From the sequence record KP869112: a DNA stretch of 64,000 nucleotides; one strand, 5' to 3'. A model generated the notes under the pieces. It was not told the DNA's origin and ran no database searches. It saw nothing but the letters and a program-made list of their open reading frames with translations. The position numbers and the translations under genes are program-made. The DNA comes from Escherichia coli O157 typing phage 14. Below are positions 9,776 to 48,548 of this stretch, piece by piece; position 1 is the stretch's first letter; every line of letters begins with the position of its first letter.

Positions 9776-9852
9776 TGGTCTCCACGGAGTGATTCGAACA
9801 CTCGACCTCCTGATCCCAAATCAGGCGCTCTACCAAGCTGAGCTACGCGGAG
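9776..9852 (-). tRNA. tRNA-Pro (anticodon UGG)
   Basis: Hand-folded cloverleaf: 7-bp acceptor stem, T-loop TTCGAAT, anticodon loop UUUGGGA, encoded CCA. Confidence 0.75.
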
Positions 9853-9863
9853 TATTTATTATT

Positions 9864-9938
9864 TGGTGGCCCTGGGTGGAATTGAACCACCGTCTGGCGA
9901 TTATGAGTCGCTTGCTTGAACCTTCCAGCTACAGGGCC
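9864..9938 (-). tRNA. tRNA with CAU anticodon (Met or Ile2)
   Basis: Acceptor GGCCCTG/CAGGGCC, T-arm GGTGG-TTCAATT-CCACC, anticodon arm GCGACUCAUAAUCGC, encoded CCA. The anticodon arm resembles the E. coli ileX type as I recall it, so Ile2 is possible. Confidence 0.7.
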
Positions 9939-9939
9939 A

Positions 9940-10015
9940 TGGTGCTGATGGCAGGACTTGAACCTGCAACCTATTGATTACAAATCAATTGCACTACCAA
10001 TTGTGCTACATCAGC
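9940..10015 (-). tRNA. tRNA-Thr (anticodon UGU)
   Basis: Acceptor GCTGATG/CATCAGC, D-stem GCAC/GTGC, anticodon stem ATTGA/TCAAT with loop UUUGUAA, T-loop TTCAAGT, CCA. Confidence 0.75.
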
Positions 10016-10022
10016 AAAAAGG

Positions 10023-10119
10023 TGCTAGGTGATGGAATCGAACCACCTATGTATTCAACGACTACCTCGTCTATTTTCAGGATTAAAAATCCTCGCCCTT
10101 GCCAAAGGGCTTACCTAGC
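10023..10119 (-). tRNA. atypical tRNA-like gene (Lys-like UUU anticodon loop, 29-nt variable region)
   Basis: Perfect 7-bp acceptor GCTAGGT/ACCTAGC, D-arm GCCC-TTTGGCAA-GGGC, T-arm GGTGG-TTCGATT-CCATC; anticodon arm GAGGA-UUUUUAA-UCCUG (G-G mismatch at 27-43). About 29 nt sit between anticodon and T stems, including an ACGA/TCGT hairpin. No complete encoded CCA. Confidence 0.5.
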
Positions 10120-10216
10120 TCAGTATGTTGACCATGTTGCTAGTCGGCGATGACGACTGTAACATTTGATAATCCGGTTCTGCTTCCGGCTTTCGCTTAA
10201 TTACAAGGTCAACAAT

Positions 10217-10308
10217 ATGGCCGAGGGTAATGGAATCGAACCATCATCAAGTCATCCTCAACGGGACGGTTTTCAAGACCGCTTGAGCACCATTGCTCCC
10301 TACCCTCA
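10217..10308 (-). tRNA. tRNA-Ser (anticodon UGA)
   Basis: Class II tRNA, 92 nt: acceptor TGAGGGT/ACCCTCG, anticodon stem GCGGT/ACCGT with loop CUUGAAA, long variable arm, T-loop TTCGATT, CCA. Confidence 0.7.
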
Positions 10309-10422
10309 TTTATAAACAATACTGATAATGACACTGATTTTCGAGCAGTTAGTGACTAGTATAAACGACGATAAATATCAATGCCATTATCTGTATGATT
10401 TATGCATTTAAAACTATAAATT

Positions 10423-10509
10423 TGGTGGGGAGTGGTGGAGTCGAACCACCCGAGTCGCAATGACAATAGATTTACAGTCTACACCGCTACCTCTACGGGA
10501 TAACTCCCC
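10423..10509 (-). tRNA. tRNA-Tyr (anticodon GUA)
   Basis: Acceptor GGGGAGT/ACTCCCC, anticodon stem GTAGA/TCTAT with loop CUGUAAA, long variable arm (class II, bacterial Tyr type), T-arm GGTGG-TTCGACT-CCACC, CCA. Confidence 0.7.
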
Positions 10510-10513
10510 AATT

Positions 10514-10588
10514 TGGCACCCCGTACTGGACTCGAACCAGTGTCAACGGCTTAGAAGGCCGCTGCTTTATCCACTAAGCTAACAGGGC
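10514..10588 (-). tRNA. tRNA-Arg (anticodon UCU)
   Basis: Acceptor GCCCTGT/ACGGGGT (two G.U pairs), D-stem GCTT/AAGC, anticodon stem GCGGC/GCCGT with loop CUUCUAA, T-arm ACTGG-TTCGAGT-CCAGT, CCA. Confidence 0.7.
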
Positions 10589-37540: not shown

Positions 37541-37570
37541 TTGACAAAGCTTTGTTTAGATAGGTATAAT
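37541..37570 (+). promoter_or_regulatory. sigma70-like promoter
   Basis: TTGACA, 18-nt spacer, TATAAT, upstream of the small basic ORF. Confidence 0.55.
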
Positions 37571-41988: not shown

Positions 41989-42222
41989 ATGAAAGTTAAA
42001 TTTCTTACAGATTTAGGGTACCCTTCCTTGGTTGACTGCATTGGTAAAATTGTGGAAGCAAAACGGCTATCTGCAAACGATAATGTTGTCATGGTTAAGG
42101 GAAAAGATTTATTAGCTGCAGGTGCAGAGTCTGGCAGGATCTCTCCTGACTATACATATTACTTATCTTTAAGTAATCTACCAGAACGAGGCGGCAAAGG
42201 CCTTGAAGTTGTGGAGGAGTGA
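41989..42222 (+). CDS. small acidic protein, paralog family member
   Basis: MKVKFL..., VVMVKGKDLLAAGAE, C-terminal GLEVVEE; shares these with 45388, 45605, 47477 and 47745. Confidence 0.5.
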   Translation: MKVKFLTDLGYPSLVDCIGKIVEAKRLSANDNVVMVKGKDLLAAGAESGRISPDYTYYLSLSNLPERGGKGLEVVEE

Positions 42223-44029: not shown

Positions 44030-44313
44030 TCTGGATATCTTATACTGATGGCACCATGCTGTATACTGCAGGTACCAGATATGAAGTTCAGGAGAACGAT
44101 AAAAAATTTATCGTAAGAACATTTGACAAGGACGACAACCTTTTGCTAGAATTGACTTACAAGGTTGGAGAGGTATCCAATATCCAATTGGATTGTGGTC
44201 ATAAAGATAATCCACTCAAAAAACCTGGAATAGGCAAGGCTTCAGAAGAACGTTTGTCTCGTATTGCAGAAAGCGTTTCTCCCCAAAAATCCAAGAAGAG
44301 GATTAGAAAATGA
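44026..44313 (+). CDS. hypothetical protein
   Basis: 95-aa ORF, start overlaps upstream stop. Confidence 0.35.
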   Translation: MIWISYTDGTMLYTAGTRYEVQENDKKFIVRTFDKDDNLLLELTYKVGEVSNIQLDCGHKDNPLKKPGIGKASEERLSRIAESVSPQKSKKRIRK

Positions 44314-45107: not shown

Positions 45108-45391
45108 TAATGAAAAAGATTAACAGTGGTGAAGTTGAGTTTAAACTTGTCGGGAAAGGCACTTACTGGGAAGTTCGTCAAAAGGTATATTTGTTCGGTC
45201 TTATTCCCTATTGGTCTAAATTCTACTGGGGAGCTAACGAGTGGGGAAGATACGCCACCAAATCAATGGCACTTATTGGTATAGCAGAGTACATTGCAGC
45301 CAGAGATAGGGTTGGAGACACTTATTACTATACTGCGGACGATATTCGTAACAGTGTTTACGTCCCACAACCACCTGATGGAGACCGTTGA
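45104..45391 (+). CDS. hypothetical protein
   Basis: 95-aa ORF. Confidence 0.35.
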   Translation: MIMKKINSGEVEFKLVGKGTYWEVRQKVYLFGLIPYWSKFYWGANEWGRYATKSMALIGIAEYIAARDRVGDTYYYTADDIRNSVYVPQPPDGDR

Positions 45392-45615
45392 TGAAAGTTA
45401 AAGTTTTAGATTCAAGCTTCTATATTGGTCAGGAGCCTTTAGTAGGAAAAGTGTTTACTGCTGTCCCTAACGAAGATTACCCTGACCTTTTAAAAATAAA
45501 AGGAGCAGATCTTATTGCCGCTGGTGCATCTCAGGAATGCTTTGACAGTCAGTGGACCTACAACTTTGCCCTAGGTGAGGATGTAGAGGTAGTGGAGGAC
45601 GATCATGAAGGTTAA
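45388..45615 (+). CDS. small acidic protein, paralog family member
   Basis: MMKVKVLDSSFYIGQ..., LLKIKGADLIAAGAS, EDVEVVEDD. Confidence 0.5.
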   Translation: MMKVKVLDSSFYIGQEPLVGKVFTAVPNEDYPDLLKIKGADLIAAGASQECFDSQWTYNFALGEDVEVVEDDHEG

Positions 45616-45859
45616 AATTCTTGATTCTAACGTCTACTTGGGACAATCCTTCCTGAATGGAAAGGTCGTTCCTGCGGTATACTTTGAAGGGTTGCCGTGG
45701 GATGATCCTGTGCGGCAACATCACAGTTATGTAGGCCACAACGTGGTGTTTATCTTGGGATCAGACCTGATCACCGCTGGTGCACCTGAATATTATTTCG
45801 GGGAAGAGTCCTACTATGCCTTTGGGGTAGGGTCAGATGCAGATATTGTAGAGCTGTGA
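45605..45859 (+). CDS. small acidic protein, paralog family member
   Basis: MKVKILDSNVYLGQ..., VVFILGSDLITAGAP, DADIVEL. Confidence 0.5.
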   Translation: MKVKILDSNVYLGQSFLNGKVVPAVYFEGLPWDDPVRQHHSYVGHNVVFILGSDLITAGAPEYYFGEESYYAFGVGSDADIVEL

Positions 45860-45871
45860 TGGGTAACCGTT

Positions 45872-46270
45872 GTGAAAAATAAACTGTTTAAAGTTACAAT
45901 GAAAATTCGCGGGGCTTGGAGCGTAAAGCAAGGGCGTATTCCAGAATTTGAGAAAGACTTCTACGTAGTCTCCACCTCGGAGGAGGCTGCATGCTGGCAG
46001 GCTGGCTATGCCTATGCAAGAACCTGGTACGAAGGATACCAGACTGGGGGCTATGACGGAGAAATTATCAGCAAGGGTGTAGAAGAAATTAATGTGTTGA
46101 CAAGTGAAAAAGTTTTTGTTATAGTGCATCCAGATTCCAGAGTGAAGCATTACTGGAATGCCAGAACAAAAACTTGGACACCGTTTGCAGATTCTGCTAC
46201 GCCACTTTTAAACCAGAAAGCTCTTGACTCTGCCCCAAGTTATGGGGTTGTTGAAGAAAAGCTAAACTGA
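45872..46270 (+). CDS. hypothetical protein (second paralog pair, with 48077)
   Basis: Shares HYWNARTKTWTP / YYWDVLNNEWTP and overall layout with 48077-48472. Confidence 0.4.
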   Translation: MKNKLFKVTMKIRGAWSVKQGRIPEFEKDFYVVSTSEEAACWQAGYAYARTWYEGYQTGGYDGEIISKGVEEINVLTSEKVFVIVHPDSRVKHYWNARTKTWTPFADSATPLLNQKALDSAPSYGVVEEKLN

Positions 46271-46584: not shown

Positions 46585-46613
46585 TTGACACAACGCTTCA
46601 GATTTAGTATCAT
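46585..46613 (+). promoter_or_regulatory. sigma70-like promoter
   Basis: TTGACA, 17-nt spacer, TATCAT, upstream of the hpf-like gene. Confidence 0.4.
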
Positions 46614-46660
46614 TGTTTTCAAAGATGGTTTGGTTCCCTCTTCTTTAAAAGGAACACGTT

Positions 46661-46978
46661 ATGCAAATTGAAATCACTGGCAACGTAGAAATCACTGAAG
46701 GTATGGTGTCTTTCATTTCCCACAAAATGTCTAAGCTGGAGCGTTTGCACCCCTCTGCCAACTATGCACGTGTGAGTGTAAAAGTTGAAAATGATCACCA
46801 GGAAGTTATGGCGCTCATTTTTGACAATTCTGGAAAAGAAGTTATTGCCAAGGCTAAAGGTAGTGATGCTTACGAGGCAACTGACCGTATGGTAGATGTT
46901 GCAGCACGTCAGCTGGCTAAATGCGGTGGAAAGAAAGGTAAGGGGAAAGGCAAAGTAAAGATTGACTTTGGAGAATGA
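46661..46978 (+). CDS. hpf: ribosome hibernation promoting factor homolog (HPF/RaiA/YfiA family)
   Basis: MQIEITGNVEITEGM...SKLERL...VSVKVEN...GKEVIAKAKGSDAYEATDRMVDVAARQLAK aligns along its length with E. coli HPF as recalled; Lys/Gly-rich tail. Confidence 0.8.
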   Translation: MQIEITGNVEITEGMVSFISHKMSKLERLHPSANYARVSVKVENDHQEVMALIFDNSGKEVIAKAKGSDAYEATDRMVDVAARQLAKCGGKKGKGKGKVKIDFGE

Positions 46979-47115
46979 GGTGCTACAATGGGCGTGATTA
47001 AGAAACTAGTCCCAAATGTAGAGATTGCATGCTTTGAAATTATGTTTGCAATCGCAGTTGTAGTTAATGTGTTAGGTTACGGCTATTAATATCAAATAAT
47101 TGAGGAGACCTCTAA

Positions 47116-47744: not shown

Positions 47745-48077
47745 ATGAAAGTACGCTTTATTGGTGAAACAATTCCTGTGCATCTCCGGTCGCCTGAGGA
47801 TTCTGCAGATCTTGCATCTCAGAAAGCGAGAGGCTATGATAAGAAAGTAACCTCAACCGGTGTAGTGCTTGAGGCTACTAGTCTACCTGACCCTGCTGCA
47901 TTCTTTAATCATTATGGGTACTATTTCAGCAATCTTATGAATATCGGTGAGCTTGTGTTTATTAGTGGTGGAGAGATTGTTAGCAAGCTTGGCGGCGATC
48001 CGGATGTCTTTCATGAAACCTGTCCTTTTGCATTTGTGGTAGGTTCAGATGTGGAAGTTATTGAGGAGGTGCGGTAA
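47745..48077 (+). CDS. small acidic protein, paralog family member
   Basis: Start at internal ATG (MKVRFIG); LVFISGGEIVSKLGG, VVGSDVEVIEEV. Confidence 0.45.
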   Translation: MKVRFIGETIPVHLRSPEDSADLASQKARGYDKKVTSTGVVLEATSLPDPAAFFNHYGYYFSNLMNIGELVFISGGEIVSKLGGDPDVFHETCPFAFVVGSDVEVIEEVR

Positions 48078-48472
48078 TGGTAAGCCTATACCGTGTTGAG
48101 TATAGCTCAGATACTGTATACAACGTAAGAAGCAAAGATCGCAGCAACAGAGTGCAAGAAATGTATGTTCTTGCCGACAGTCCGTTATCTGCAGCGTTCA
48201 AGGCAGGGGCTCTTGCATCTCGTTGGAAATTTGAAGGCGGATCTTTCTATGAAGAAACCCTTGAAGATTCTGTTGTTATTTCTTCTGTAGAGGTTTCAGA
48301 TGACTACGAAGGGAAAAAGTTCGTAATGCGGCACCCACACAGCAACATTGCGTACTACTGGGATGTTCTGAACAACGAGTGGACCCCAGATCTTCAGAAG
48401 GCCACTGTGCTAACACCGTTTTTGGCAGATAAGTTCCCACCAGAAGGTAATTTATCCGCACTGTTTCAGTAA
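48077..48472 (+). CDS. hypothetical protein (paralog of 45872)
   Basis: YYWDVLNNEWTP region shared with 45872-46270. Confidence 0.4.
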   Translation: MVSLYRVEYSSDTVYNVRSKDRSNRVQEMYVLADSPLSAAFKAGALASRWKFEGGSFYEETLEDSVVISSVEVSDDYEGKKFVMRHPHSNIAYYWDVLNNEWTPDLQKATVLTPFLADKFPPEGNLSALFQ

Positions 48473-48548
48473 TTTTCTTGCACACAGGTGTTGACAACAC
48501 CAACCCTGTGTGAAATAATACCTTCATCTTAACAAGACGGGAGACTGA

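Follow-up and report, generated by a model that had tools for sequence, protein, structure and literature searches.

[quoted passage not shown] The first-pass annotation of the window (the whole 64,000-nucleotide stretch of record KP869112 analysed here) had described a homolog of the HPF/RaiA proteins inside an array of small genes, preceded by its own promoter-like element and ending in a Lys/Gly-rich tail, and had suggested that it could silence or protect host ribosomes during takeover. The features considered here are as follows, with positions given in the coordinates of the window.

46585-46613, + strand: sigma70-type promoter TTGACA-17-TATCAT, 11 of 12 consensus matches
46649-46653, + strand: Shine-Dalgarno AAGGA, 7 nt 5' of the ATG, from sequence reading
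46661-46978, + strand: HPF-like ORF, ATG to TGA, 105 aa
46661-46927, + strand: HPF/RaiA (Ribosomal_S30AE) domain, residues 1-89, from Pfam, NCBIfam and PDB matches and the predicted fold
46928-46975, + strand: Gly/Lys-rich C-terminal tail, residues 90-105 (GKKGKGKGKVKIDFGE), predicted to be disordered
46976-46978, + strand: stop codon TGA of the HPF gene

The 4 kb surrounding the gene share 99.3% nucleotide identity with Escherichia phage FFH2 and at least 98% with phage rV5, and exceed 90% identity to approximately 120 phage records, nearly all of them from the genus Vequintavirus. By sequence, the window is assigned to an rV5-like Vequintavirus, an FFH2-like isolate. The HPF-like protein was found by tblastn to be encoded in 118 phage records (115 of these at 95% identity or more), that is, in 118 of the approximately 120 related records. 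Record DQ832317 (rV5) lists the gene as ORF144; its position is shared and its product (ABI79209) is 99% identical to the protein studied here, the single difference being L52 versus F52, such that the two genes do not differ substantially. The gene has carried an annotation ever since the rV5 record (ORF144/P144 in DQ832317, with the genome paper in 2013), and Mizuno et al. characterised and tested it in 2019; its existence is therefore already known. What is new here relative to earlier work is the strong purifying selection, the old acquisition and the pattern of contact residues. Separately, 18 records named 'Campylobacter phage' (GenBank MG065635-MG065684) are approximately 98% identical to the coliphage region and contain the same HPF gene; these records are probably mislabelled or contaminated.

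Membership of the HPF family was assessed by profile search, with significant results. Pfam PF02482 (Ribosomal_S30AE) matched residues 3-88 with an E-value of 8.8e-13; its score of 49.2 bits exceeds the gathering score of 23.7. NCBIfam TIGR00741 (HPF/YfiA family), for which the cutoff is 40.9, gave 46.6 bits. The best sequence matches among solved structures were to E. coli HPF (2RQL, 4V8H and 6H4N; E approximately 4e-12), with residues 1-89 aligned to residues 1-89. Similarity to HPF/RaiA at the sequence level is far above that expected by chance. Pairwise identity was 43% to E. coli HPF (residues 1-89) and 25% to RaiA; when compared with the PDB, the E. coli reference sequences used were exact for HPF and off at one tail residue for RaiA. 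The protein scored below the cutoffs of both the enterobacterial short HPF equivalog (NF007780, 55.8 bits, cutoff 125) and the RaiA/YfiA equivalog (NF007654, 17.7 bits, cutoff 158). Furthermore, with 105 aa, a single Pfam domain and a disordered tail, it lacks the C-terminal dimerisation domain of the long HPF proteins. Together, the missed equivalog cutoffs and the absent dimerisation domain place the phage protein as a divergent member of the short-HPF type, and as the equivalog of neither host factor. The alignment along the whole length of HPF/RaiA that had been claimed for the protein holds for residues 1-89, while the last 16 residues (GKKGKGKGKVKIDFGE) have no HPF counterpart; these residues form the Lys/Gly-rich tail, which was correctly recognised.

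An AlphaFold2 model was built from five phage sequences and had a mean pLDDT of 83.9, with block means of 86-95 for residues 1-80 and 79 for residues 81-90, and values below 50 for tail residues 91-105. The predicted elements (E2-7, H13-29, E33-42, E47-55, E60-67 and H70-89) follow the canonical beta-alpha-beta-beta-beta-alpha order. A Foldseek search against the PDB returned 35 matches at E<=1e-3, all 35 of which are hibernation factors of the HPF/RaiA/protein Y family, including RafH. The leading matches were Vibrio cholerae HPF (4HEI, rmsd 1.1 Å) and E. coli HPF (2RQL/6H4N, 1.2-1.5 Å, 42% identity). Sequence and predicted fold thus both indicate a true HPF-family domain, and the profile, structure-database and fold evidence agree with the original identification of a phage-encoded HPF/RaiA homolog.

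The closest match in both sequence and fold is the short HPF of E. coli (YhbH; 2RQL, 6H4N, 6Y69), a protein that likewise consists of one domain with beta-alpha-beta-beta-beta-alpha architecture and begins with almost the same N-terminal sequence, MQ[LI]xITGNxVEITE. The two differ at the C-terminus, where E. coli HPF ends in KDKLKQH and the phage protein ends in its 16-residue Gly/Lys tail, and in pI (8.7 for the phage protein versus 6.5 for E. coli HPF). E. coli RaiA (YfiA, protein Y) likewise shares the domain and, in common with the phage protein, possesses a C-terminal extension past alpha2. However, the RaiA tail is acidic (net charge of about -3 to -4 over 25 residues) whereas the 17 residues from 89 to 105 of the phage protein are basic, with a net charge of +4.

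Ribosome-contact positions were taken from the cryo-EM analysis of Gram-negative HPF/YfiA (bioRxiv 10.1101/2025.10.07.680626). Contact or near-invariant positions kept in the phage protein comprise K23, K26, E44, E60, D69, Y71, D75, R83, K87 and a lysine near 91, and contact position Q29 is occupied by R. Four positions have been replaced: K80 is V in the phage protein and T in the diverged sister clade described below (K in 20 of 25 cellular sequences); K89 is G/S (K in 18 of 25); T53 is L/F/R; and H55 is F. In the cryo-EM work, R83 contacts m4C1402, H55 contacts uS9 and T53 belongs to the m2G966 contact motif (bioRxiv 10.1101/2025.10.07.680626). The basic ladder of alpha2 (positions 80/83/87/89/91/93) reads VRKGKG, compared with KRKKKK in E. 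coli HPF, and four to six of its six positions are basic in most full-length cellular members. Overall, identity to E. coli HPF was 32% at contact positions versus 42% elsewhere. The same split for RaiA versus HPF gave 32% and 40%, and RaiA occupies the same site. The ribosome interface of the phage protein appears to have been altered without being taken apart, and the charge of the flexible Gly/Lys tail could make up for the lysines missing from the helix.

The gene lies, as first described, within a long run of small genes. In the rV5 genome paper the corresponding stretch is reported to comprise 88 mainly small ORFs, and 33 sigma70-like promoters were predicted (PMC3606486). The promoter-like element upstream of the HPF gene also withstood closer inspection: it coincides with the annotated sigma70 promoter P144 of rV5 (DQ832317) and was conserved in all orthologs examined. 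All nine close orthologs keep both hexamers along with the AAACTGTTGACA motif that flanks them, and the diverged clade (64% protein identity) retains TTGACA-17-AATTAT upstream of its own HPF copy. The Shine-Dalgarno is similarly kept in orthologs, and the record of phage Murica marks an RBS there. Sites with at least 11 of 12 sigma70 matches number 17 in the window versus 1.55 ± 1.25 in simulated sequence, an 11-fold enrichment, so that near-consensus promoter-like sites can be taken as a genuine characteristic of this genome. Eleven of the 17 are on the + strand, most of those in the small-gene array; sites at 37541-37570, 44123-44152, 46097-46125 and 48491-48519 are among the 17. From these promoter sites we infer that the HPF gene would be transcribed early by the host RNA polymerase. 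Its constitutive-type sigma70 promoter differs from the stationary-phase control of E. coli HPF.

A hairpin in the 5'-UTR, between promoter and RBS, was considered as a regulatory element and rejected: the consensus structure was weak (-8.35 kcal/mol), covariation was essentially nil (term +0.03; a compensatory change in one of 16 pairs), and 197 of 200 shuffles folded at least as well as the UTR of the window (z=+1.67). At the other end of the gene, a TG-extended promoter-like site (TTGACT-16-TACAAT, 46962-46989) is located within its 3' end and is followed directly by a 33-aa hydrophobic ORF (46988-47089), which is ORF145 of rV5 and is named 'putative membrane protein' in some records.

Potential partner genes were sought in the surrounding DNA. 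None of nine neighbouring ORFs had a Pfam match, and no RMF-like or other translation factor was found among them. The HPF gene is flanked by two copies of a duplicated small-gene module. One family of approximately 75-110 aa (41989-42222, 45391-45615, 45605-45859 and 47745-48077) has a mutual identity of 30-40%, and the two copies of a second family of approximately 130 aa (45899-46270 and 48077-48472) are 31% identical; neither family has Pfam matches. Elsewhere in the window, a tRNA cluster at 9776-10588 on the - strand encodes Pro-TGG, Met-CAT, Thr-TGT, Ser-TGA, Tyr-GTA and Arg-TCT, together with an odd tRNA-like gene of 99 nt (10021-10119) for which ARAGORN calls a 4-base anticodon and the Rfam tRNA score is only 35.5 bits.

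Does the protein act on ribosomes? In Mizuno et al. 2019 (PMC6375957), the 105-aa rV5 protein ABI79209 is listed together with its relatives as phage HPF, and the phage HPFs are placed among those of gammaproteobacteria. For that work, E. coli NM522 was made to produce the rV5 protein from pBAD24. Mass spectrometry identified peptides of the protein in the crude extract and not in the 70S or 100S fractions of sucrose gradients, and its expression led to no discernible change in 100S particles, RMF-inducing conditions not having been used. Cells were collected as exponential growth ended, their ribosomes were pelleted for 20 h through a cushion containing 500 mM NH4Cl, and the accessible text mentions no host-HPF positive control (PMC6375957). 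Growth phase, the salt wash and a genuine loss of binding are offered by the authors as possible reasons. Under continuous arabinose-driven expression of the rV5 protein, E. coli grew to an OD of 1 (PMC6375957). As far as the published description extends, we do not regard the negative co-sedimentation result as decisive because it was obtained with a high-salt cushion, late-exponential cells and no host-HPF control. In protocols of the Wada laboratory, RMF, HPF and YfiA reportedly stay in crude ribosomes and are largely stripped by high-salt washing. A literature search found no functional work on phage HPF, and no Vequintavirus transcriptomes, after Mizuno 2019.

Taking these observations together, we lean with modest confidence towards a single joint reading: that a short-HPF ortholog was captured long ago by a phage ancestor from a gammaproteobacterial host, and that it now serves as an early, salt-labile binder of 30S/70S particles which parks or protects idle ribosomes and does not build 100S dimers. 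Following early transcription by host RNA polymerase, the protein would dock in the decoding channel of the 30S subunit of vacant ribosomes in the manner of HPF/RaiA, using the retained basic residues of alpha1 and alpha2 (K22, K25, R28, R83 and K87) together with D75. The poly-Gly/Lys tail would act as a looser electrostatic anchor in place of the lost K80 and K89, and may reach toward the mRNA-exit/RMF side of the ribosome. Idle 70S ribosomes would be parked and protected, reversibly and in a salt-labile manner, either during takeover or in starved hosts. By analogy with RaiA, such action would be of the 70S type, as opposed to RMF-dependent formation of 100S.

Family scores, fold, retained contacts, selection, distribution and the conserved promoter all count in favour of this parking role. 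In the published experiment, the lack of toxicity on continuous expression fits a factor that acts on vacant ribosomes only, and the unchanged 100S fraction fits action of the 70S type and not of the 100S type. Against it count the loss of K80 and K89, two of the six positions in the alpha2 ladder, and of T53 and H55, the 32% identity at contact positions, the missed equivalog cutoffs and the reported failure to detect the rV5 protein in purified 70S and 100S ribosomes (PMC6375957).

The same losses can be read differently. It is possible, though we think it rather unlikely, that the protein is no longer a classical hibernation factor and that selection has reshaped its ribosome face (K80, K89, T53 and H55 lost; K59, K64, K66 and the Gly/Lys tail gained) to yield a phage-specific modulator of translation. 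Were this true, the protein could block RMF or host HPF, thereby keeping or waking ribosomes in starved hosts, or it could bind only infection-modified ribosomes or a non-ribosomal target. A modulator of this kind would explain why the published work, as described, failed to find the protein on ribosomes.

A more specific proposal comes from Mizuno et al. 2019, in which a viral HPF is suggested to prevent dimers by competition (PMC6375957). As an anti-hibernation decoy, the phage protein would compete with host HPF, RaiA and RMF, prevent or dissolve 100S particles and free ribosomes for phage mRNAs; for example, its tail might occlude the RMF site so that ribosomes of slow-growing hosts are kept available. 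The tail is very basic and 10 residues longer than that of E. coli HPF, and might disturb RMF by analogy with the RaiA tail, which blocks RMF; the weakened contact set could also ease displacement by initiation factors. However, an occupant of the HPF site itself blocks tRNA and mRNA, and a decoy must out-compete the host factors yet leave easily, whereas the weakened interface argues against out-competing. Furthermore, the small 100S fraction was unchanged on expression and binding was not seen in the reported experiment (PMC6375957). We consider this explanation improbable.

Equally doubtful, in our estimation, is a repurposed domain in which the HPF fold has been kept and the target switched to another RNA, to a phage or host protein, or to a small molecule. 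The only experiment showed, as reported, no ribosome association (PMC6375957), several conserved contact residues are lost, and four conserved, phage-specific patches are common to both phage clades (LHP 29-31, DHQEV 45-49, AKAKG 63-67 and DAYEATD 69-75). A possible analogy is provided by Acb4 of phage SPO1 (9E4W), a small phage protein with an HPF/dsRBD-like fold, tetrameric with extra helices, in which an HPF-like fold has been turned into an anti-CBASS nucleotide sponge. Unlike Acb4, the protein studied here retains clear HPF sequence homology including R83, K87 and D75, and 9E4W was absent both from the PDB sequence matches (E<=10) and from the best 50 Foldseek matches. The idea of an Acb4-like sponge is accordingly given low weight, with no sequence or top-ranking fold similarity among the matches listed. 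Moreover, the negative ribosome result was obtained with ribosomes washed in 500 mM NH4Cl (PMC6375957).

Whether the gene performs any function at all was addressed through its origin and mode of evolution. A word-indexed homolog search returned five phage proteins only. When 1.84 billion representatives were searched exhaustively with phmmer, a single match fell below 1e-10, a protein of 103 aa (P0004) with an identity to the phage protein of 65% by phmmer and 64% by BLASTP/MAFFT; cellular phmmer matches were all at most 45% identical. No close cellular donor or prophage copy was found among one genome each of 185,579 prokaryotic species. P0004 is encoded in contigs of 125-137 kb; the Logan/ENA contigs L002-L005 that carry it measure 15.7-125.8 kb, for example ERR6997038_58 (125.8 kb). 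These contigs were not present in the phage collection searched. P0004 occupies the matching place in a syntenic small-gene array, and over approximately one-third of the region the contigs share 72-78% nucleotide identity with Vequintavirus; they represent a sister lineage to that genus. The GC content of the HPF gene (43.1%, GC3 38.7%) is fully adjusted to that of the phage (42.3%). Taken together, cellular relatives at no more than about 45% identity, a phage-like GC content and a syntenic 64% copy argue that the capture is old, not recent, and predates the split between Vequintavirus and its sister lineage. A capture before that split qualifies the suggestion of Mizuno et al. 2019 that HPF transfer was "relatively recent" (PMC6375957).

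Selection was estimated over core residues 1-88 in ten orthologs, and informative pairs gave dN/dS values of 0.02-0.13 with dS up to 0.76; pairs involving the 64% clade (L002) gave no dN/dS, probably because synonymous sites are saturated. The tail is conserved as protein, differing over 15 codons between the window and L007 at six nucleotides and one amino acid. The sister-clade tail differs yet is still basic (SKSKGIDKRTAKWDY). Core and tail both bear the signature of strong purifying selection, and by this evidence the gene is clearly functional in the phage.

The A/G-rich DNA of the tail is also subject to one-base indels, as in APECc02 (L008, 601-906) and Murica (L009, 601-900), where the tail is changed or cut short (…KCGRKKGKGERQSKD and …GKGKAK) and the HPF domain is intact. 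Such frameshifts may reflect natural slippage, or they may be errors of sequencing.

These data bear on the view that the gene is a neutral passenger or decaying relic, a host gene acquired by chance and now without function. The surroundings, composed of many small, unknown and apparently dispensable genes, and the two isolates with frameshifted tails could be cited for it. Conversely, the low dN/dS, the retention of the gene by approximately 118 of 120 related genomes as well as by the sister lineage at 64% identity, each with a conserved promoter, and the GC content adjusted to the phage all oppose it. The strength of purifying selection rejects this reading, which we consider effectively refuted and very improbable.

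The naming of the gene has been inconsistent, with "sigma 54 modulation factor", "ribosome hibernation promoting factor", "hypothetical protein" and "ribosome-associated translation inhibitor RaiA" (also the RefSeq product) all in use. The least probable explanation of all, a regulator of sigma54-dependent transcription, has nothing in its favour other than the historical name in rV5 and other records, a name that arose from the place of the gene beside rpoN in enterobacteria, and the PDB deposits the same proteins as ribosome-bound hibernation promoting factor. Annotation errors extend further: in several genomes, OR062525, OR062530, MT884008 and MT884010 among them, the gene is named 'ATP-dependent protease La type I', and in APECc02 (L008, 1057-1326) and ECP32 (L012, 1056-1325) the label 'sigma 54 modulation factor' has been put on, or additionally on, an unrelated downstream ORF of 89 aa.

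HPF-like proteins are also found in jumbo phages of E. coli and Cronobacter (GAP32 K4F6Q6 and PBECO4 L7TII8), as single-domain S30AE proteins of 106-127 aa. These are the nearest predicted viral structures to the typing phage 14 protein, yet are only 17-24% identical to it. They belong to PHROG 8990 whereas the present gene belongs to PHROG 12469, and no tblastn match was obtained at E<=1e-3. The different PHROG and low identity point to independent acquisition of the jumbo-phage genes.

The evidence from sequence describes what is clearly an ancient and functional gene of this phage lineage, for which the silencing or protection of host ribosomes is a candidate role. Phage copies of ribosome-associated factors suggest direct viral manipulation of the translation apparatus. 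In the present case the gene is near-universal and strongly constrained, with a promoter of the predicted early type, in a genus widely used in the biocontrol and typing of E. coli O157, and its function would bear on the performance of these phages on slow-growing or stationary hosts. The phage protein departs from host HPF precisely in a portion of the surface that faces the ribosome and in the tail, which narrows the question of what it does.
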